Position numbers and translations under genes: made by a program. Source: Escherichia coli (GTDB taxonomy: Bacteria > Pseudomonadota > Gammaproteobacteria > Enterobacterales > Enterobacteriaceae). Taken from it: a stretch of 64,000 bases of DNA. The stretch lies in NCBI GenBank assembly GCA_025336725.1, contig GCA_025336725.1_3647.1, one strand, 5' to 3'. This document shows positions 1,839-61,116 of this stretch, in pieces; positions within the stretch are counted from its first letter, which is position 1, and each line of letters starts with the position of its first letter. The notes under the pieces were generated by a model, which saw only the letters and a program-made list of their open reading frames with translations, did not search any database and was not told where the DNA came from.

Positions 1839-3920
1839 TTAAAAAGGTGTCTCATCGTCTTCAAAACCGGGAACAGGGTCAGAGGACGGATCATCATACG
1901 GAAGGTTTTCTTGTGTGTCAACAGGGTTAACAGCAGGGGTTATAACCTTATCAGCCACAACCTTGCCCACAGGTGTTTCTACAACTGCATGCTCCTGATC
2001 CTCAAACATAGCCTGAGGTCTCCAAACAACCTCCCCACCTTCCCCATCTGTAAACATCTGCATTTCTTTGTCCCAGTACCAGTTGCTGGCATCATGGAAC
2101 TTGCCTGTGTGGGGATCCATAACTAGAGTGTCTGCAATACCTAAGGTTTTTGCTGGGCGGTTTTTAAGACCTACCAGTCGGACACGTCCACGGGAACGAT
2201 CCACCATCTCCTCTGCCTCTACCCCGACAACCACCCAGCTAAGTTGCTCCAATCCGGCACTACCGCGAAGGTTCTCTTTTCGTACAGGGTACCAGAAAGG
2301 TAACGGATTTCCATCCTTATCCTTCGGAGGTACAATCTCTGTGCGCTTCAGGTGAGCAATCACCAAGATAAACACATTAAACTGCTTACAGAACGCGGCT
2401 AGTTGAGTCATAGCCATGTCAAGTTCTTTGCGCTCATCCTTAACATTAAGCCCTGAAATCACCATAGACAAGTGATCCAGCACAATGTAACGGCAGTGAT
2501 ACAGGCACACCATTTGTTTAAGCTTAGTGATCAGCTCATCTACAGGGATGGAGCCGAAATGCTTGAACACTTTGATTTTTCCGGCCTTGGCCCAAGATTG
2601 ATGAATCTCAGCGTGCTCCTGATCGGTCAGGAACTGACTGGGGTCTTCAACAAACTCTTTAACATCAAACCCCAGCTGGTTAGCGTACAGAGAGTTGATT
2701 GCTTCCTCAGGATCCTCTTCAAGGTGAATCAGGCACAGGCGATCATCCTCTTCATAATCATCAGCTTTAGGGCATGTTGGATCCATCAAGTATCTTGCAA
2801 TGCAATGTTCCAGCTTCTTGGCTACAGTTGTTTTACCACCGCCAGACGGGCCTGTCAGCATCATCAAGGTGCCTTTGTGGAGTCCTTTCAGCATCTTCTG
2901 CAGTTTAGGGAACTCTGCACTAATATCCACGCCATTGGAAGTCTTCTTACGAAGAGATTCAATGGAGAAGTCTTCTAAATCAGATACAGCATCAGGCACA
3001 TATTTGACTGGGTGACGGAACATGTTGACAATATCTTCCAGCTTTTTAGCCTTCAGCATGTCACGAATATCTTTTACACCATCAGGGTCGTTTACCTCAC
3101 CTGGGTATTCCACGTGGTAAACGTTGTCAGCCATCAAAAATGCTGCGATATTATGCGTAGCTTCAACACCTTTGATAACGTGTTTTTGCTTCTCTACCTC
3201 GTTAGCTGCATCGTTGTCCATTGCAAGGACTACTGTTCCGTAGCTACGGATAAATTTCTCATTGTTCGCAAAAGTGTCTACGGCGTTTGCACACCCGCAG
3301 TTAATTCCGACAAAAGGCAGGCATGGTTTTCCTGCCAGATCACCGCCGTTAATAACTGCATCAATCCCATCCTGGACTTCTTTAGCCCACTGCTTCACCT
3401 TCGCCGGGGCTTTAGCATTGGTGAGAATTCCTTTTACTTGTACCTGATATGCAGCCTGCCACGCTGCAATAACATCTCCTTCCCCCTCACAAACGTTAAT
3501 CTGCTTGCGGTTGTTGGAGGATGCACACAGCTTTTGACCAAACATCTGGGAGTTGGCCTTTACTATGCCGACAACCGAGAAATGGCCCCTTTGCTCTTTA
3601 GGGATTGTCCAGTCACGCTTTTTAAAGCCAGATAGATTACCGTAGCGGTCATAATACGGAAAGTAGGTGGCAGTAACAGTTACGCCATCCTCTTGGGATA
3701 GCGATGATCGTACACCAAAATATTGTGCAGCCATCAGTCCAATATTTTGTTGTGGAACAGGGACAATTTTAGTATTTTCTAAAACAGTCTCTACAGTTTC
3801 AACTTCTTTTTCATCACGATAGTCTCGTTTCACACTTCCCCCACTTTTATACTTAGTTGCTTTCGGGTTTGGCTCACCGAAACGGTTGTATGCAGATGCC
3901 ATGAATTTACTGCCCATCAA
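1839..3920 (-). CDS. bifunctional DNA primase/helicase (T7 gp4-like)
   Basis: 693 aa; TOPRIM-like segment (..VVLAMDNDAANE..) followed by RecA-type helicase core with Walker A LTGPSGGGKTT. Confidence 0.8.
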   Translation of the reverse strand: MMGSKFMASAYNRFGEPNPKATKYKSGGSVKRDYRDEKEVETVETVLENTKIVPVPQQNIGLMAAQYFGVRSSLSQEDGVTVTATYFPYYDRYGNLSGFKKRDWTIPKEQRGHFSVVGIVKANSQMFGQKLCASSNNRKQINVCEGEGDVIAAWQAAYQVQVKGILTNAKAPAKVKQWAKEVQDGIDAVINGGDLAGKPCLPFVGINCGCANAVDTFANNEKFIRSYGTVVLAMDNDAANEVEKQKHVIKGVEATHNIAAFLMADNVYHVEYPGEVNDPDGVKDIRDMLKAKKLEDIVNMFRHPVKYVPDAVSDLEDFSIESLRKKTSNGVDISAEFPKLQKMLKGLHKGTLMMLTGPSGGGKTTVAKKLEHCIARYLMDPTCPKADDYEEDDRLCLIHLEEDPEEAINSLYANQLGFDVKEFVEDPSQFLTDQEHAEIHQSWAKAGKIKVFKHFGSIPVDELITKLKQMVCLYHCRYIVLDHLSMVISGLNVKDERKELDMAMTQLAAFCKQFNVFILVIAHLKRTEIVPPKDKDGNPLPFWYPVRKENLRGSAGLEQLSWVVVGVEAEEMVDRSRGRVRLVGLKNRPAKTLGIADTLVMDPHTGKFHDASNWYWDKEMQMFTDGEGGEVVWRPQAMFEDQEHAVVETPVGKVVADKVITPAVNPVDTQENLPYDDPSSDPVPGFEDDETPF

Positions 3921-54323: not shown

Positions 54324-54464
54324 TTACCAAAGGTCGGTAGACATGAAGTTGATATCTTTATTGTTCTCCCACTCAAGTTTTGCATCAAATATTTTGTTAA
54401 ACTCGCCCTCATCTATTGAAATCGTGATTTTCCCATCACTGATCTCTAAAGGTAGCATTTCCAT
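54324..54464 (-). CDS. small hypothetical ORF (46 aa)
   Basis: MEMLPLEISDGKITISIDEGEF.., below ORF-track cutoff; sits just upstream of terminator; weak RBS. Confidence 0.25.
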   Translation of the reverse strand: MEMLPLEISDGKITISIDEGEFNKIFDAKLEWENNKDINFMSTDLW

Positions 54465-54637
54465 AGTTCTTAATTGAGAAGCAAAACCGAGGCCACCCCG
54501 GCAACGGAAAATCCCGCCCCATTAAGGTGTCCAAAGGATTAACAAACCCGTTACCTCAAATGAAAGTATCTTTGCGAATCATATCGCTGATAGCATCCAG
54601 CTGCTGATTTCTTTCACTTAGTGGGTTGTAACGGTCA

Positions 54638-56662
54638 TTAAATAATTCCGGCGCTTAGTATTATACCGATAATGCCCAGCTTACCGAGCAGACCAACTTT
54701 GCCACCAGGTGTCTTGAGGCCACCCCCACCTTTTCCTGCCGGAGCTCCACCACCAGATCCTTCTGTAGTAGCGGCACCAGCTGCTGCTGCTGCTCCAGCT
54801 GCACCCCTTAGAGAGTTAAGGAATTTAAAGGTTTTTACAAGCATGGATGCCATGACAAAACCTTTTGTTAGGGCGTTGACTACCAGCATGATGGCAGCAG
54901 CAAACCCTGCCCATTTAGCATAGCTAAAGGTGTCATGAAGCTCTTCAGAATATTCCTTCGTCTTAGCTGTTATGAATCCCCATTTAATCCCCCATTCAAG
55001 GAAAAACATGCGGATCTTGACTATAGTGTTGTTTAGTTCACCAACTACCCAGTTAAGGCCTCTCACAAACCCGCTAACAAAATCACCAGAGGCATCCACA
55101 CAAATTACGGGGAGTCTCGCCAGTGCGAATCAGTGTATAATGAACTCTGTTAATTCATCGCTTAACGGGTGAACAGCTTCTGACAGGATAATTCGATGAA
55201 GGTTTTCAGTCTGTTTTCTGCCAATGCGTTAGACTTCTGCATTCTTTCATAACCGGCTGCAGATGCCTCGTTCATATACTTAGCCACATACTTCATGATC
55301 TTGGCTGTCTTAACCTCACCTTTCTTCATCATGTCCATGAACTGATCCATGGACAGTTCAGAAAAGACCAAAAGCCTCTTTGGTGGCTTTGATAAAGGTT
55401 ATGCGGGCAATGCTTCAGCAAGTTGTTGCTTCAGTTCTTCGGACATTACCTGTCCTTTCCCGAGCAATTTGCTGGATTGCCATGATACCACGCTGGTATT
55501 TTACCTCATCGGCACCATAAGCAGCAGCATACTGTGAGTATGCAGAAAACAGCTCATGCACTTCCTGATTTGTCATCTGGTTTTTGGCGTTTACCGACAT
55601 CTGGGCGTAACCTTGAAGACCAGATTTGAGATCAAAACCAAGACGCATAGCCTCTTGCTGGACAAACGCAACCTCACTGTTGGCTTTGTTTGGATCTCCA
55701 GTAACAGCAGTAAGAGCAGCACTTGCCCCCTCCATCATGTGACCAGATCTGTTCACAGCAGTAAATCCAGAGAAAGCCGTATACGCAGCTGTTGCATTAA
55801 TAACAGACCTACGTAAGTCTCTCATGGCATCACCAAGTGTAAGCGTTTGGCTGGTGGCGCTTTTAAATCCAGACTGCAGAGCTGACAGGTGGGCGTTAAA
55901 GGTTGACTTTTTCATCTCCCCGCGAGCAAACCTGGACTCTAACTCTGAGTATCCAGGCAAGCTTCCACGGAATCCGGCTCCATACTTGGCAGAAAGTCTT
56001 ATCGCAGAGTTGTAGAGGTGGGTTCTCCTTGCCTCACGATCCGACATAAGCCTATTATCCATGCCAGCTTTACTGTCCCTTCTTAGCTGTCTATGATAAC
56101 GATTCATAGCAGCTGTCTGAGCTTTCACAAGGTTAGGGTCGGAAGCCACACCACCCATATTAGGGTTACCAGGGATATACTTGAAAGATTTGGCATTAGC
56201 CAAAACTCTTGCCTTAGGTGCCTTATAACCGCCGTAAGACACTGGTGTAGATTTGGCAGCCTTTTTGGCCTCTTTAGCTTGCTGCTGGTAGAACTTACGC
56301 ATCCTAGCCATTTCTGGATTTTTAGCGGTAAGATTGCCTACAGCTTGTTTACGTCTCGCGTTCTCCCTACGTTCTATTGCGGCCCTTACTGCAGCCTCTT
56401 TCTTGGCTTGTGCTACGCTCTCCCTGTGCAGTTTAGCATTTGCCTGAGATTGCTGTCTGGCAACCCGCTGCATTGTTTGCTGGGTTTTAACAGCCACTGC
56501 CTGCCATCTACTCATCGGGTTGGCTGAGTTAAAATCCTCGCCAAGTTTCCTGAACTCCCTCCCAATACTGCGAATTTTCTCTACAGCTTTTTTGTAGGAG
56601 GAGTTCTCTATCTCAAAGCCAATCTTGTTGACTGTTGTGGCAACTATTTTGTTTGTAGCCAT
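54638..56662 (-). pseudogene. tail tape measure protein gene, apparently disrupted
   Basis: Three consecutive same-strand ORFs in three frames (55415..56662, 55162..55371, 54638..55099) downstream of G/GT chaperone; the two distal ORFs lack RBS and ATG; additional in-frame TAA. Confidence 0.5.
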
Positions 56663-56674
56663 GCTTTCCTCATA

Positions 56675-56711
56675 ATAAAAAGGGCCAGATCCCAGAAAAG
56701 GAATCCGGCCC
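56675..56711 (-). terminator. hairpin plus T-run between chaperone and tape measure genes (terminator or attenuator)
   Basis: Minus strand GGGCCGGAT-(12-nt loop)-ATCTGGCCC followed by TTTTTAT. Confidence 0.35.
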
Positions 56712-56716
56712 TTAGA

Positions 56717-57450
56717 TTATCCTCTCCTGCGCTTAGCTTTCGCAGCAGCTGCGGCAGCCTTCTGCTCCCGCTCCATTTCCCTGTTTTGGACGGTATCTAG
56801 GAATTCTTCGATATCAAGATACTCACAGAGCTTCAGGAAATACGCCATATCTGCAAGATTTAGCGATTCAAAATTTTCCCCTTTGAAATTCTTGAGCACC
56901 CTGCACCAAAGAAAGTCGAACCAGTTAAGTGAACTGTTCTTGGCTGCCCACTCACTGGCCCTCACAACAACCTTGCTTATTCCTGCTCTTCCGGAGTCTG
57001 ATCCAGATTGTTCACCTGCTGGATCATACCCATCTGCTGTAACATCTCCAGAAGGCTTCCTAAACCGTCTTGTGTGAAAAAACAGCCGTAGTTAACCTCC
57101 AGAACCTTACCTGCCAGCTTAATCATCTCCAGCAGATGCCCTGCAAACACAACATCAGGGTTAAGCTTATCCACACCATCCACGGTAATATCTTCGAACA
57201 AGATTTTAAATAACTCTTCAATAGAGTTATCATCAAGTTCCTGGAACAGGTAAGCTAGGGCTGTAGGAAGGACCTCTGCCATATTCTGACCGCCTGAGAG
57301 AATAGATCCACCGATAGCACCTAGCGGGACAGCCACAATCTTACCGATTTTAGGCATGTTTTTCATTGCTTTCATCGGCCCCCAGTGAGTGATCACAAAG
57401 TTGTGCCCTGCTAAATCAATCTCTGTTGTAGGTCTAAAGTTTATAGCCAT
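56717..57450 (-). CDS. tail assembly chaperone frameshift product (gpGT-like) via -1 ribosomal frameshift
   Basis: -1 frame is open from near the slippery site through ORF 56717..56965 (82 aa, no own RBS). Confidence 0.55.
56977..57450 (-). CDS. tail assembly chaperone (gpG-like)
   Basis: 157 aa upstream of tape measure; slippery heptamer near 3' end. Confidence 0.65.
   Translation of the reverse strand: MAINFRPTTEIDLAGHNFVITHWGPMKAMKNMPKIGKIVAVPLGAIGGSILSGGQNMAEVLPTALAYLFQELDDNSIEELFKILFEDITVDGVDKLNPDVVFAGHLLEMIKLAGKVLEVNYGCFFTQDGLGSLLEMLQQMGMIQQVNNLDQTPEEQE
57076..57082 (-). other. -1 slippery heptamer T TTT TTC
   Basis: Minus strand ..GGC TGT TTT TTC ACA..; forward strand A6 run 57077-57082. 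Confidence 0.55.
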
Positions 57451-57493
57451 TTTATAGCATCCTTATTAGTCATGTTGTGCACCATATTTGTGT

Positions 57494-57522
57494 ATTTTAC
57501 CATGATTATAGCGCATTGTCAA
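57494..57522 (-). promoter_or_regulatory. sigma70-like promoter upstream of chaperone gene
   Basis: Minus strand TTGACA (57522-57517), 17-nt spacer, TAAAAT (57499-57494). Confidence 0.4.
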
Positions 57523-57523
57523 T

Positions 57524-58762
57524 TTAACCTTTCAACCAATCCAAGTATGCAGGATCATTTTTACCTTCATCGCTGTGCCATTCGAAGCGAGAGTTGCCGC
57601 TGTTTTCAAGGATATAGCAGCCTGCATTTTTAGCATTCCACTCTTGTGTTTTCTCAGGATCGTATAAGGACTCGTCCAACCCTAAATGCTTCAGTGTCTC
57701 TTGGATGTTTGACTTCCACCAAGCCTGTCTTGGCATTCTGCCACCACGGTAGCTCCAGAAGCTGGTAGATACCTGATCGTCCTCTGCCAAAATCCAGCCA
57801 TCCTCCTCCTTATAGGACACACCTGTGAAGTAATCCCTGTCAAGGAAGGATTGAACATGATCCATCTTAAACTCTTTTTGGATATGCTTAAACAGCTTAC
57901 TACGCCCACCAGGAACGTTACAGCTTGTTGCATACCTTACCATGTCCCACATAACGAAAGGGGTTACCTTTTGATCTCTGTTTTTCAATACCTTAAAACT
58001 CATACAAGCTACCAGCTCACCGTCAGATGTAAACAGACCCTTCTTCACTTCCTTGGCGGGAGCATACCCTTGAATGTGGTTTTTCTCCATAAAGTCACGG
58101 TAAGTTTTATTGTCCACATCCCTAACTGTGCACTTTCTGGCATAGACGGTCTTCTCGTCTTTGACTCCTAAAGCATTCTTAAGATATCTCTCAATGATAG
58201 GTCTTTTCCGAGCATCCTGCCAATCACAATCCCATATAGACAACATGCGAATACCTTGTTTTTCACAGGCCTTCCTTTTCAGGATGTGGTACCATTTCCC
58301 CTTACTATCCACGGAGTGCCAATAGGCACCATTATATTCCACAGCAAGCTTAAGCTCCGGGATATAAATGTCCAGCTCCATCTTTTTCTTGGAAGGATCT
58401 TTAAAGTTGTCCAGAATCCGCACGTTCTCTTCAATATCTCCGCTATAGACACTTTTAATGAACGTCAGGATCTCTTTTTCACCATTAGACTGATTGCGAC
58501 AGCAACGAGGGCATCCTTGTCCTTTCCCGTAATGGAATTCAGGACGCTGCATGAAGATATTCCCACACTCTTTGTGGCGCATCATCATAGGCGTTGAGGC
58601 GTTCACATAAGAGTCTTCAAAATACTCATAATCCCCACCATGAACTTCTACACATCTCTCAACTATTTCTTGGAAGCTAGGAACTTTTTTCACAGAAACA
58701 GACCTTGCTGCGCAAGTCTTGCACCCTTGCCCAGATAAATGCTTGCTGGGTTTCTGATACAT
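57524..58762 (-). CDS. homing endonuclease-like protein (zinc ribbon plus nuclease-like domain)
   Basis: 412 aa between tube and chaperone genes; N-terminal HGGDYEY..C..CG..F.Q.P..H..G.GCP.C zinc-ribbon; central ..LDIYIPELKLAVEYNGAYWH.. Confidence 0.45.
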   Translation of the reverse strand: MYQKPSKHLSGQGCKTCAARSVSVKKVPSFQEIVERCVEVHGGDYEYFEDSYVNASTPMMMRHKECGNIFMQRPEFHYGKGQGCPRCCRNQSNGEKEILTFIKSVYSGDIEENVRILDNFKDPSKKKMELDIYIPELKLAVEYNGAYWHSVDSKGKWYHILKRKACEKQGIRMLSIWDCDWQDARKRPIIERYLKNALGVKDEKTVYARKCTVRDVDNKTYRDFMEKNHIQGYAPAKEVKKGLFTSDGELVACMSFKVLKNRDQKVTPFVMWDMVRYATSCNVPGGRSKLFKHIQKEFKMDHVQSFLDRDYFTGVSYKEEDGWILAEDDQVSTSFWSYRGGRMPRQAWWKSNIQETLKHLGLDESLYDPEKTQEWNAKNAGCYILENSGNSRFEWHSDEGKNDPAYLDWLKG

Positions 58763-58849
58763 TATTCTTCCGCACGTTTTGCAATGAATCTCAACCTTAT
58801 CCCAGAGGTCTTGCTTACTACATGGCTATGACCATACTTTTCAGCATTT

Positions 58850-59149
58850 TCAAGGATATCTTTTTAATACCTTTTTGATCCACTCCTCGGTAGTGCACCT
58901 GTTACCACGCTCATGTGGGAATTTCTTACCCTTTCTTGATTTTGCAGATCTCTCAGCTCCACAAACAGGGCATCCTCTTTTTAGATTTATATGGTTATCA
59001 GGTGTCTGGTTGAAGTGGTTACCGCAGGTATTGCAGACTATTTCTACCTTATCTTTGCATGTTTTGTATTCTATAAGAGAATAATCGTACTTATCTCCGT
59101 GAACCCTACGAGCTTTTTCGATAAACCTTTCTGCACTCAATTTAGCCAT
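58850..59149 (-). CDS. small zinc-ribbon protein related to N-terminus of adjacent endonuclease-like gene
   Basis: 99 aa; HGDKYDYS..CNTCGNHFNQTPDNHINLKRGCPVCG parallels N-terminus of ORF 57524..58762. Confidence 0.45.
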   Translation of the reverse strand: MAKLSAERFIEKARRVHGDKYDYSLIEYKTCKDKVEIVCNTCGNHFNQTPDNHINLKRGCPVCGAERSAKSRKGKKFPHERGNRCTTEEWIKKVLKRYP

Positions 59150-59209
59150 AACTGTCTCCTCCTTTATTGTAGGATACTAAAAACAAACAAATATGTCAAA
59201 ACCCTAAAA

Positions 59210-59237
59210 GCAAAAAAGCCCCACCCGAAGGTGAGGC
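59210..59237 (-). terminator. rho-independent terminator
   Basis: Minus strand GCCTCACC-TTCG-GGTGGGGC followed by TTTTTTGC, downstream of tube-like gene. Confidence 0.55.
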
Positions 59238-59255
59238 TTATACTAAAGTGTGCCC

Positions 59256-59729
59256 TTAGATAATACCTGCAAGACCTGCGAGGCCAGTGAGAGCACCAGT
59301 GATGTTGTCACGGTTGAGCCATGCATCCAGAATACCGATATCCCAGTCCAGTTGACCTACTTCGGTTCCGTAAGTCAGGTCAGGCTGTTTCTGGATCCAA
59401 CCGATTGTAGAAATACCAGGGCCTTGGCTACCTTCCAGCAGAACCGGGAAGAATACCAGACCAGTAATCGATGCCTGTTTCTGCCAGTCGGAAAGGTAGG
59501 CGTTCCATACAGAAGTGTTCTGCAAAGATACAGTCATAACACCGGATTGGTTACGAGACAGAGCCGCAGACATTTCGCCATCCACACCAACGTGAGGGTA
59601 GATGTTGTCTTCATTTCTTGAAACAACGATCTTGGTGTCAGCAGCGAAGCCAGTGACACGCTGCTGCATCAGATACAGTTTGACCTTTTTAGGGTCATAC
59701 GCATAAGGAGTTAAAATTTGAGTTTCCAT
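59256..59729 (-). CDS. tail tube-like protein (tentative)
   Basis: 157 aa directly after 458-aa gene and before chaperone/TMP genes; called by size and position. Confidence 0.45.
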   Translation of the reverse strand: METQILTPYAYDPKKVKLYLMQQRVTGFAADTKIVVSRNEDNIYPHVGVDGEMSAALSRNQSGVMTVSLQNTSVWNAYLSDWQKQASITGLVFFPVLLEGSQGPGISTIGWIQKQPDLTYGTEVGQLDWDIGILDAWLNRDNITGALTGLAGLAGII

Positions 59730-59739
59730 CTAGTATTCC

Positions 59740-61116
59740 TTATTCAGTCATTGCAACAGCATTGGTGGATTTAGAACCAACTTTGTCCAGAAGAACGTTG
59801 ATCCGGATACGAACGAAGTGCAGAGCGTTGTTATACACCAGTTCTACTTTCACACCTTCCAGAACACGAGCAGCCAACTGGTTGGTCGGGATTTCTGCAC
59901 GTTTTGGAACTGTAATGATCGGGTCGTAGAATACATTGTTGTCTTCGTCAAAACCTGTCAGGATAGCACCGTTCTTAATGCCCGTATTGATCGGGTTGTT
60001 CATCAGAACAGACTTGATAACTGGCAGATCATCATCAGACATCTTCATGCTCAGGCCCATATTAGAGCGGCGGTGCATATATCCGAACATGGACTCTTCA
60101 GATCTAAACTTAATCCAGTGAGCGAAGCGGATAGCATCTGCATACTGACCAGAGGCACATTTACCTTCCCAGAAAGCACCAACACCGTTGATTGTTCTGT
60201 AGAAGTTAATGTTGTTCTCCCAAATCGCCATGCGCTGGGTCAATGTCAGTGATGGTGCAAGCACACCAGGCATCTGTTTTAAGTGTAAGCTGTCTCCGTA
60301 AGATGGATCGTTGGATGCCATAGCACCGATAATACCGCCCTCTGGGAAGTCTTTGTCGGCGCGAGGGTCGTACATACCAACACTGTCATATTTTGCAGCT
60401 TTCAGTTTAGCGGCGATGTTGCTGTCTTTACCAGTTACATCTTCTGAAGTAGAGTAGACATGTAACTTGTAGTTAGCCTGAGCCCACTTAGCACACGCCT
60501 CAATGTCTGTGTGGTCTTCATGACACAGGAAGTACCAATTGTCCCGCTCAGCATTGATCTTGTCAATTACTGTAGAAGGTTTTTCAGCATTGGCGATATT
60601 TTTGATTGTATAGTTACCAGTATGATAACCAACAGTGCAGTCACCAGTGATGGTGAGAACACCTTCAGAAGCCTCTACAGTGATATCGTTCAAGCTATCA
60701 TCTGCTTCAATTTTAGTCTTCATTGACTCTGCAATCTGAGTTGCACCTGTTCCACCAGAAACAGGGACTATCAAGGCAGTATTGTAGTCACCTTTTGCAA
60801 TAGTCATTACGACATCGGTATCAGCTGCAGCAGCAATGCCTTTGAAATCTACAGTGGTTTTTTCTTTGGCTTGTCTGCCGATCATAACATATTGTGGAGG
60901 GAATACACCACCAAAAGCTTTTGCTGCAAACTCATATGCTGCAGAGCCTTGTGCGAAACCATCTTCCACCATCTGGTCCAGCTCAGCATATACGCGAGCT
61001 CGCTCAGTAAAGTTATTGTGGATAGCGATGAACAGGGGAGTTTCGAAACCTACAGTGTCAATAGGCTGGGTTCCGAGGTTAACTGTAACATCTACCACTT
61101 TATCTAAATATGGCAT
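59740..61116 (-). CDS. tail sheath-like protein (tentative)
   Basis: 458 aa; GAGGA RBS; position immediately upstream of tube-like gene. Confidence 0.45.
   Translation of the reverse strand: MPYLDKVVDVTVNLGTQPIDTVGFETPLFIAIHNNFTERARVYAELDQMVEDGFAQGSAAYEFAAKAFGGVFPPQYVMIGRQAKEKTTVDFKGIAAAADTDVVMTIAKGDYNTALIVPVSGGTGATQIAESMKTKIEADDSLNDITVEASEGVLTITGDCTVGYHTGNYTIKNIANAEKPSTVIDKINAERDNWYFLCHEDHTDIEACAKWAQANYKLHVYSTSEDVTGKDSNIAAKLKAAKYDSVGMYDPRADKDFPEGGIIGAMASNDPSYGDSLHLKQMPGVLAPSLTLTQRMAIWENNINFYRTINGVGAFWEGKCASGQYADAIRFAHWIKFRSEESMFGYMHRRSNMGLSMKMSDDDLPVIKSVLMNNPINTGIKNGAILTGFDEDNNVFYDPIITVPKRAEIPTNQLAARVLEGVKVELVYNNALHFVRIRINVLLDKVGSKSTNAVAMTE

Follow-up and report, generated by a model that had tools for sequence, protein, structure and literature searches.

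A single gene in the tube-chaperone interval

Positions 57524-59149 of the window (the whole 64,000-nucleotide stretch of DNA analysed here) probably hold one free-standing Hef-like homing endonuclease gene, lying between the tail tube gene (59256-59729) and the tail assembly chaperone gene (56977-57450), with its two-ORF appearance produced by a pair of indels of likely artefactual origin. The genome is that of a Vequintavirus, an rV5/FV3-like E. coli myophage of 137 kb, and the intact protein comprises three zinc-ribbon modules, a Vsr-like nuclease and a C-terminal Mom-like GNAT domain (Table 1). The initial annotation had correctly placed ORFs of 412 and 99 codons between these two tail genes, but took them for two genes, the shorter being a zinc-ribbon-only relative and decayed copy of the longer; we find instead that the 99-aa ORF encodes the N-terminal portion of one shared gene product and ends early, at a TGA that a single-base insertion creates.

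Both ORFs lie in an identical reading frame, and together they are colinear, base for base, with the single 541-aa gene of HMD-6 (1626 = 1626 nt) and with one profile, PHROG 559, of which positions 121-200 are matched by the 99-aa ORF and 224-603 by the 412-aa ORF. Because of this shared frame and twofold colinearity, and because the break sits within a module that is confidently folded in the intact ortholog P0001, we read the two as one gene. The coding sequence is uninterrupted in HMD-6 (541 aa), JEP1 (540 aa), PDX (616 aa) and A147 (611 aa), and among the 15 members listed of a 17-member 90% cluster the split form occurs in one contig only, the other 14 being intact proteins of 540, 541 or 611 aa. 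The 412-aa ORF, whose AlphaFold model has a mean pLDDT of 90, begins within ribbon 2, of which it keeps half, and continues through ribbon 3 and the nuclease to the Mom-like domain. The entries MCT7477435.1 and MCT7477436.1, both annotated as 'hypothetical proteins', are corrected here to one Hef-like endonuclease gene.

Table 1 Features of the endonuclease locus, with positions in the window
Feature	Position	Strand	Basis or remark
Hef-like homing endonuclease gene, ancestrally 541 codons plus stop	57524..59149	-	1626-nt colinearity with intact HMD-6 CDS
N-terminal fragment ORF, 99 codons plus TGA	58850..59149	-	zinc-ribbon module 1 and first helix of module 2
C-terminal fragment ORF, 412 codons plus stop	57524..58762	-	internal Met start
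Zinc-ribbon module 1	58958-59137	-	residues 6-54 in AlphaFold model of intact ortholog P0001
Zinc-ribbon module 2, broken by both indels	58709..58894	-	confidently folded in intact P0001
+1 insertion	58851..58852	-	plus strand AA, A in relatives; alignments with HMD-6 and JEP1
-1 deletion	58801..58803	-	plus strand C run of three, four in HMD-6; alignments with HMD-6 and JEP1
Zinc-ribbon module 3	58499..58681	-	alignment consensus HG..YDY...Y....C..HG.F.Q.P..H..G.GCP.C and model
Vsr-like PD-(D/E)xK nuclease domain, EDxHD-type	58160..58489	-	residues S92, E95, E129, D131, E142, N144, H149, H159, K162
Mom-like GNAT domain, ~208 aa	57527..58150	-	H229, R276, S288, D308, R309, Y317 aligned with Mom
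Gene 3' end (…YLDWLKG, stop)	57524..57549	-	remains in gene-free genomes as deletion scar
Segment absent from endonuclease-free Vequintaviruses, ~1642 nt	57550..59191	-	boundaries uncertain by a few nt
Terminator-like hairpin of tube gene, 10 pairs plus T run	59216..59239	-	backbone
Sigma-70-type promoter of chaperone/tape-measure genes, TTGACA-N17-TAAAAT	57494..57522	-	backbone
Own promoter-like site of endonuclease gene, TTGACA-N17-TATCCT	59171..59199	-

Origin of the two interruptions

The two indels lie ~50 nt apart, both inside zinc-ribbon module 2. The first, an insertion private to the window, turns CCTGA on the coding strand into CCTTGA, giving the stop at 58850-58852, and the second, a deletion, restores the homologous frame to frame 0. 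We consider it likely that the split is a sequencing or assembly artefact of the draft contig, and not the mark of a second, decayed gene copy, because at least seven other window genes, including the essential tape measure gene, carry frame-breaking indels. Relative to the JEP1 proteins, the tape measure gene falls into five frame segments, and frame switches are also seen in a baseplate gene, two tail-fibre genes, the tube-initiator gene, the gene for a 1877-aa protein and one more gene. Over 13 kb the window has 32 private indel columns, compared with 0-7 in JEP1, HMD-6 and YN3; many of these are homopolymer-length changes, and some lie amid clustered substitutions, as in the endonuclease patch. 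The contig has been flagged as indel-ridden, which bears on every gene call in the window.

A less probable but credible alternative is that the same single Hef-like gene is split in reality, as a pseudogene that has reached the degenerating phase of the homing-endonuclease life cycle, in which case the 412-aa nuclease/Mom-like fragment might still be expressed without most of the DNA-reading array. Phage homing endonuclease genes are often frameshifted (PMC10448857), and in most relatives this gene is already lost, with a scar left behind. The 50-nt out-of-frame stretch between the indels carries six substitutions, including conserved KYDYS..Y positions, and three of the six are window-specific changes at conserved zinc-ribbon residues (D to G, Y to H and Y to S), a pattern that also fits true decay, as does a local dN/dS of 0.55 against HMD-6 within the broken module. 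Outside that module, however, dN/dS is 0.03-0.06, so that selection is not relaxed in the rest of the gene, and the other 14 listed cluster members are all intact. Similar lesions (1-2-nt indels) moreover affect the tape measure, baseplate and tail fibre genes, where they would be intolerable for a propagating lytic phage.

Domain organisation

The three zinc-ribbon modules share a Cys/His/Tyr pattern and appear as three repeated folds in the intact ortholog's model, with pLDDT above 90 across module 2 (P0001 residues 90-140). They are of the DUF723/CapR treble-clef type, each a repeated CxxC…CxxC module with an HGDKYDYS lead-in; Pfam DUF723 matches the 99-aa ORF with 22.0 bits (cut-off 20.9), and Y107 in module 2 is at least 90% conserved across the family. 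Ribbon repeats within the protein are 29-39% identical and are found in all intact homologs, their number varying from three in the window gene to four in PDX/A147. These identities, the shared frame and the colinearity led us to reject a decayed duplicate as the origin of the 99-aa ORF. By analogy with the zinc-finger repeats described in PMC10448857, we infer that the array binds DNA.

The zinc ribbon and nuclease-like core that had been assigned to the 412-aa ORF are both present. Its IPELKLAVEYNGAYWH motif includes the family-invariant E142, G145 and H149 of the nuclease core, which has a Vsr-like fold, and the closest solved structure is the homing endonuclease I-Bth0305I (PDB 3R3P). Of the three folds proposed beforehand, HNH, GIY-YIG and PD-(D/E)xK, the last is the one found; HNH and GIY-YIG gave no Pfam hit at E up to 1 and are rejected, with their motif absent and the catalytic domain of PD-(D/E)xK fold, and the label 'HNH endonuclease' of PHROG 559 is a misnomer for the window protein. 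Alignment with I-Bth0305I equates E95 with E170 (by position only), D131 with D196, N144 with N208 and H149 with H213, and these four residues are conserved in 101-121 of the 121 homologs. The fifth EDxHD position (D222 of I-Bth0305I) is His159 in 120 of 121 homologs, giving agreement at four of the five positions, and the window copy keeps all catalytic-site residues.

Missed in the initial annotation was the C-terminal Mom-like domain, which has a GNAT fold with the helical insertion specific to Mom. Mu Mom (PDB 8BV8) is the best structural match of these 208 residues, with 207 aligned columns that include the insertion, and the motif VQSF.D…G..Y is common to both proteins. Profile-profile comparison with Mom by hhalign gives a probability of 90% (E = 1.5e-6); against Mu Mom a single-sequence search is weak (probability 12%), and the match is convincing only profile against profile. 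Pfam finds nothing for this domain: even with E as loose as 10, PF25680 matches neither the window protein nor its repaired form, and homolog P0109 scores 26.0 bits, short of the 27.1 cut-off. Because it falls below the PF25680 gathering threshold, we use the name Mom-like without assigning the domain to the Mom family.

Mu Mom modifies the N6 of adenine in dsDNA using Gly-tRNAGly, and its residues R111, S124 and R151 are essential, as are H58, D149 and Y159 (PMC13219725). The alignment equates H229 with H58, R276 with R111, S288 with S124, D308 with D149 and Y317 with Y159; Mom R151 aligns with D310, and an Arg occupies the adjacent position 309, a shift of one residue. Of the 121 homologs, 73-98% keep the equivalents of R111, S124, D149 and Y159, the S288 position being Ser in 88 and Gly in 30. 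This conserved putative active site suggests a role for the protein beyond that of a plain homing endonuclease, and the domain could serve as an accessory DNA-binding or dimerisation module or confer a DNA-modifying activity. The whole Hef-like family appears to carry the domain with its putative active site, an observation that is computational only.

Distribution and mobility

Full-length profile matches place the protein in PHROG 559 (E = 1.3e-88) and PHROG 3339, 'homing endonuclease' (E = 2.7e-68), with no informative match in NCBIfam, and the UniRef name of the JEP1 ortholog is 'Hef-like homing endonuclease'. Matches by tblastn fall in 416 phage records, many of those among the matches listed being annotated as Hef, Hef-like or homing endonuclease, including the hef/Hef-like genes of RaK2, CP8, PM2 and phiP4-3; jumbo phages, phiR1-37, RaK2, PBS1 and Lak among them, also have members of the family. 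The gene is an ordinary addition to this already known Hef-like homing endonuclease family.

Far from being present at this locus in all relatives, the gene occupies the site in 5 of 118 Vequintavirus records (~4%), the remaining 113 being contiguous empty sites with flanks ~97% identical; near-identical genomes differ in whether they carry it at this fixed intergenic position, which adjoins conserved genes. A related phage has a 68%-identical homolog at this locus too, a 55%-identical homolog lies between nrdD and nrdG in another phage, and Campylobacter phage genomes have 10-11 matching places each by tblastn. Mobility of the gene is supported by this low site occupancy and by relatives at other loci such as nrdD/nrdG. 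Beside the homolog in L008 there is a 108-aa ORF with no PHROG match.

Empty sites retain the last ~21-25 nt of the gene as a deletion scar, 19 of 21 nt being identical. The C-terminal WLKG encoded there is also found in P0038, and because P0038 lies at a different locus we regard WLKG as native to the protein family. Comparison with insertion-free relatives, proposed in the initial annotation as a route to the target site, did delimit the missing segment, but the 1.5 kb flanks of five carriers and three non-carriers held no clear co-conversion tract and no SNP outside the junction that separates the two groups, so that no cleavage site can be inferred from them. An Rfam scan of 56500-60000 gave no match to a group I intron or any other RNA family. 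With ~4% of sites occupied and a deletion scar elsewhere, the locus gives a textbook view of how such elements are gained, decay and are lost. It also places a homing-type element in the tail operon of Vequintaviruses, which find use in phage therapy and biocontrol. The tube-chaperone locus is likely to be a boundary for recombination between tail modules.

Putative function

We infer that the window protein acts in homing. During co-infection with a gene-free phage the zinc-ribbon array would recognise a long, asymmetric site within or close to the tube-chaperone interval, the Vsr-like nuclease would cut that site in the gene-free genome, and recombinational repair from the carrier genome would copy the gene, with some flank, into the cut genome.

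It seems to us improbable that the protein is not primarily a homing enzyme and serves instead in modification plus restriction, or in superinfection exclusion, as one chain whose Mom-like domain modifies adenines of the carrier phage and whose nuclease attacks unmodified host or competitor DNA, the activity that Iyer et al. 2021 (PMC7824862) predicted for Mom-REase fusions of jumbo phages. Such an enzyme would be suited by the Mom-like fold and profile of the C-terminal domain, by the conservation, to the extent given above, of the equivalents of essential Mom residues, and by the reach of the family into jumbo phages (phiR1-37, RaK2, PBS1, Lak). Against it, the gene is present in only ~4% of phages that are otherwise ~97% identical, at an identical site and with a scar in the rest, and members of the family are multi-copy in some phage genomes and adjoin conserved essential genes (nrdD/nrdG, tube/chaperone). 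Sequence-reading zinc-ribbon arrays are, in addition, typical of site-specific homing enzymes (PMC10448857), and the prototype U5 Hef, to which the link runs by annotation and PMC3239194, is reported to act as a homing endonuclease.

Homing and modification-restriction are not mutually exclusive roles. Speculatively, and with rather little expectation that it will prove correct, Hef-like enzymes may be conceived as single-polypeptide 'homing restriction-modification' elements, in which zinc ribbons would guide both N6-adenine modification, protecting the carrier phage's own copies of the target, and cutting of the unmodified site in competing phages without the gene; the modification would possibly be aminoacyl-tRNA-dependent, as in Mu Mom. 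If true, a homing endonuclease would owe its self-immunity to a modified base rather than to a disrupted target site.

Flanking signals and other readings of the two ORFs

That the interruption is functional, either through programmed recoding (+1 at CCU-UGA, then -1) or as a deliberate two-subunit enzyme, is barely credible. Both fragments retain low dN/dS, and +1 shifts are known to be favoured where a stop immediately follows a Pro codon; recoding would, however, need two events 50 nt apart, the intervening frame is altered at conserved residues, the open stretch upstream of Met130 has no start codon, and no other member listed, among 120 homologs and 15 cluster members, has a comparable split. 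Programmed frameshifting was rejected on the two events required and on the intact orthologs.

A hairpin and a promoter do flank the interval as first described, but not as the brackets of a cassette. The terminator of the tube gene is also present in the empty-site genomes FV3, Gotham and YP-6, and is annotated as a terminator in Gotham; the downstream promoter (11/12 matches, extended TG) is found in all empty-site genomes examined and is annotated in Gotham and rV5. Since both signals occur in gene-free genomes, they belong to the tail-operon backbone and are not cassette borders. The endonuclease stop codon (57524-57526) abuts the -35 box of the downstream promoter. Downstream of the tube gene terminator the endonuclease gene has its own promoter-like site, whose -35 hexamer spans the insertion boundary and whose PDX/A147 counterpart is TTGACA-N17-TATCAT, and a predicted strong ribosome-binding site, the Shine-Dalgarno AAGGAGG at 59158-59164, 8 nt before the ATG.

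Of the mobile homing-endonuclease cassette of the initial annotation, the homing endonuclease family holds and the mobility is supported, while the terminator and promoter of its own and the separate decayed zinc-ribbon-only copy do not hold: two ORFs were called, a zinc-ribbon motif is found in both and the two signals flank them, but we give this picture next to no credence with the ORFs in one frame and colinear with a single intact gene, the ribbons being intra-protein modules of all intact homologs, and the signals occurring at empty sites.

Comparison with known systems

The nearest counterparts are the Hef and Hef-like enzymes (U5 Hef; F-LimIII/VII/VIII/X of LIMEstone1; those of CP220-type Campylobacter phages), which by annotation belong to the same sequence family (PHROG 559/3339) and are likewise free-standing, sporadic, placed beside conserved essential or structural genes and able to be multi-copy; the Vequintavirus clade differs in being known from sequence alone. 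Sandegren et al. (2005, cited in PMC2988022) reportedly found that Hef of phage U5, the prototype, is a homing endonuclease that cuts nrdB. By description the window protein is set beside this prototype, its link to Hef resting on annotation and on PMC3239194, where Hef-type enzymes are placed in the Vsr-like EDxHD family of I-Bth0305I. In Dickeya phage LIMEstone1, F-LimVIII also adjoins a tail tube gene (PMC3296691).

With I-Bth0305I and the EDxHD homing endonucleases (PDB 3R3P; PMC3239194) the protein has the Vsr-like nuclease fold in common. I-Bth0305I, however, is intron-encoded, with N-terminal NUMOD/HTH DNA-binding repeats and nothing after the nuclease, whereas the window protein comes from a free-standing gene, has zinc-ribbon repeats and an added Mom-like domain, and carries H159 in place of D222.

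T5orf172 (GIY-YIG-type) homing endonucleases of ICP1 and other phages contain CapR/DUF723/DUF4397 zinc-finger repeats, and their genes show frameshifts and changes of repeat number by recombination (PMC10448857). They resemble the window protein in the tandem zinc-ribbon DNA-binding array, the position near structural or essential genes and the variable presence; their catalytic domain is unrelated, being GIY-YIG/T5orf172 where the window protein has a Vsr-like PD-(D/E)xK domain.

Mom-REase fusions of jumbo phages, predicted to pair modification with restriction (Iyer et al. 2021, PMC7824862), likewise combine an REase fold with a Mom-family GNAT, and their jumbo-phage members are matched by the window protein. 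For those fusions the prediction is one of defence or counter-defence, whereas the window gene, in a 137-kb phage, is distributed as a homing element. In contrast to Mu Mom itself, the Mom-like domain of the window protein is fused to a nuclease and a putative DNA-reading array.

Locus and gene structure

In DNA comparison the window proves to be a Vequintavirus (rV5/FV3-like E. coli myophage); every gene around the endonuclease ORFs lies on the minus strand (Table). The tail assembly chaperone gene is followed, after 12 nt, by an 82-aa ORF that is 100% identical in JEP1 and whose position suggests that it is the second chaperone product, here a separate ORF; in other phages this product is made by frameshifting. 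The exact products of the two endonuclease ORFs occur in one public record (MCT7477435.1 and MCT7477436.1, from an E. coli draft assembly, 122-kb contig).

Table. Features of the tail region and positions of frame disruption in the window
Feature	Position	Strand	Remark
Tail sheath	59740-61116	-	
Tube	59256-59729	-	
Terminator-like hairpin	59216-59239		
Promoter-like site of endonuclease gene	59171-59199		TTGACA-N17-TATCCT; mostly brought by gene, -35 hexamer spans junction
99-aa ORF	58850-59149	-	
Inserted base	58851-52		CCTGA to CCTTGA, makes TGA at 58850-52 (vs HMD-6)
Deleted base	58801-03		GGGG to GGG (vs HMD-6)
412-aa ORF	57524-58762	-	
Promoter-like site	57494-57522		TTGACA-N17-TAAAAT
Tail assembly chaperone	56977-57450	-	
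82-aa ORF	56717-56965	-	PHROG 10409 (function unknown)
Tape measure gene	54327-56662	-	Five segments, frames -1, -2, -1, -2, -3
Tube-initiator gene	~53800		Frame switch vs JEP1
Baseplate gene	~51110		Frame switch vs JEP1
Two tail-fibre genes	~30910 and ~33200		Frame switch vs JEP1; ~33200 is a divergent gene
1877-aa protein gene	~26429 and ~23090		Frame switches vs JEP1
One further gene	~20055		Frame switch vs JEP1

The 99-aa and 412-aa ORFs were initially annotated as a gene pair, the shorter a decayed copy, but they are a single gene. Both share one reading frame: when 59149-57524 is translated, the 99-aa product is followed by three stops within 16 codons, after which the frame is open and, ahead of the annotated Met, already encodes the latter half of a zinc ribbon (…DKVEIHCKTCGRIM…). 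At the same place phage HMD-6 carries a single colinear 1626-nt CDS (541 aa); the window segment, also 1626 nt, differs from it by 67 substitutions, one inserted base and one deleted base, with ~50 nt between the two indels. Intact genes are also found in JEP1 (540 aa), PDX (616 aa) and A147 (611 aa), and among the 15 listed members of a 90%-identity cluster (17 members) 13 are 540/541 aa long and one is 611 aa. Consecutive parts of one PHROG profile are matched by the 99-aa ORF (121-200) and the 412-aa ORF (224-603). An AlphaFold model of an intact ortholog (pLDDT 89.5) contains three repeated zinc-ribbon modules, with the window break located within the confidently folded module 2. Pairwise identity among the modules is 29-39%, indicating old intra-protein repeats and no recent gene duplicate.

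The split is probably a sequencing or assembly artefact. Relative to JEP1 proteins, frame switches occur in at least seven other window genes, several of them essential and structural, and a 13-kb comparison gives it 32 private indel columns versus 0-7 in JEP1, HMD-6 and YN3, many of its indels altering homopolymer length. As a lytic phage could not propagate with a tape measure gene so shattered, the indels are best read as consensus errors. Real decay of the gene is the less likely reading, and it keeps some weight because six substitutions fall in the 50 out-of-frame nt and three of these alter conserved KYDYS..Y positions, with a local dN/dS of 0.55 against 0.03-0.06 in the rest; several other window indels also sit amid clustered substitutions, like this patch. 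Sequencing errors have most likely mangled the window copy. The contig has the appearance of a draft consensus rich in errors, so all ORF calls in the window should be treated with caution.

Insertion site and allelic variation

With a probe across the empty FV3 site, the site proved empty and contiguous in 113 records, rV5 among them, and split by the gene in five (HMD-6, JEP1, PDX, A147 and A135). The insert of ~1642 nt (~57550-59191) is essentially the ORF and its leader, and supplies a strong Shine-Dalgarno sequence. The flanking terminator and promoter had been taken to bracket a mobile cassette; both exist, but the tube terminator and chaperone promoter also occur, and are annotated, in empty-site genomes (Gotham, rV5) and are therefore backbone signals. 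The chaperone promoter's -35 box directly adjoins the endonuclease stop codon. At empty sites the final ~21-25 nt of the ORF persist (…L.N.LKG*; 19/21 nt identical), and this end (57524-57549 in the window) lies directly upstream of the chaperone promoter in the 113 Vequintavirus records lacking the gene. A homolog located at a different locus also ends in WLKG; the terminus is thus a native part of the protein and the 'empty' allele a deletion scar. The scar is identical in the three genomes examined (FV3, Gotham and YP-6) and so points to a single ancestral loss rather than a site that never held the gene. In the comparison with relatives, proposed initially to define the target site, neither a clear co-conversion tract nor a clear target emerged from SNPs in the flanks.

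In a related 134-kb phage contig (L008) the tube-chaperone site holds a 68%-identical homolog; an additional 108-aa ORF without PHROG match (3578-3904) lies between the tube and endonuclease genes. A 55%-identical homolog occupies the nrdD-nrdG interval of another phage, nrdD/nrdG being a classic homing endonuclease hot spot. In a 141-kb phage contig (L009; 589-3877 and 7399-7872) gene calling breaks the anaerobic ribonucleotide reductase gene nrdD into five pieces; after it come a Hef-like gene and then, ahead of nrdG, a second, small endonuclease-like ORF (DUF723/MUG113), an arrangement that resembles a tightly packed group of mobile elements or introns. At the window's own endonuclease locus, an Rfam scan of 56500-60000 detected neither an intron nor any other RNA family.

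A second allele, found in PDX (L001, 2125-3975) and A147 (L002, 2125-3960), encodes 611-616 aa at ~80% amino acid identity with the 541-aa type and adds a fourth zinc-ribbon module at the N-terminus, despite flanks ~97% identical, pointing to repeat-number change or separate acquisitions. Eighteen 'Campylobacter phage' records (MG065644, MG065690, MG065646 and others; A147, A135, D1…) have tail regions 86.9-97.1% identical to the window, ~97% for those without the endonuclease gene. The records examined are unannotated, A147 is flagged UNVERIFIED, and the Campylobacter host label is doubtful.

Domain architecture and relationship to known endonucleases

The N-terminus consists of DUF723/DUF4379 treble-clef zinc ribbons, a type described as modular DNA-binding repeats in phage homing endonucleases (PMC10448857). 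The nuclease-like core noted in the 412-aa ORF is borne out as a Vsr-like domain, in which S92, E95, E129, D131, E142, G145, H149, H159 and K162 are 99-100% conserved (121 homologs). Alignment with I-Bth0305I equates D131, N144 and H149 with D196, N208 and H213 of its EDxHD motif, with H159 in place of the final Asp (D222); E95 probably corresponds to E170. With a Vsr-like fold, the protein is mislabelled by PHROG as an 'HNH endonuclease'.

Overlooked initially, the C-terminal domain, used as a profile, matches a Mom-family profile (90% probability, E = 1.5e-6) and has the motif VQSF.D…G..Y in common with it. Residues H229, R276, S288, D308 and Y317 correspond to Mom H58, R111, S124, D149 and Y159, which are important or essential in Mom (PMC13219725), and are kept in 73-98% of homologs. 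One homolog (P0109) falls just short of the Pfam Mom threshold (26.0 versus 27.1 bits) and the window protein is also below it in a Pfam search, so we use the term Mom-like here without counting the domain as a Mom member. Computational work has noted fusions of Mom with REase-fold nucleases in jumbo phages and read them as pairing modification with restriction (PMC7824862); no experimental work on them was found in the literature searched. The boldest reading, of low probability, is that the domain protects the carrier's own genome through adenine modification.

The role inferred for the protein is that of a free-standing homing endonuclease, in line with the initial mobile-endonuclease reading. 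Its zinc-ribbon array would read a long target in genomes without the gene, the Vsr-like domain would cut the target genome, and the gene would be copied into the cut genome by recombinational repair. Phage Hef-type enzymes have been placed in the Vsr-like family (PMC3239194), and the JEP1 ortholog is named 'Hef-like homing endonuclease' in UniRef. A tblastn search with the nuclease and C-terminal part gave matches at 1004 places in 416 phage records; among the matches listed, many are annotated hef, Hef-like or homing endonuclease. The window protein is best placed in the already known Hef-like/EDxHD kind; GenBank relatives have the protein, named there only as 'hypothetical'.
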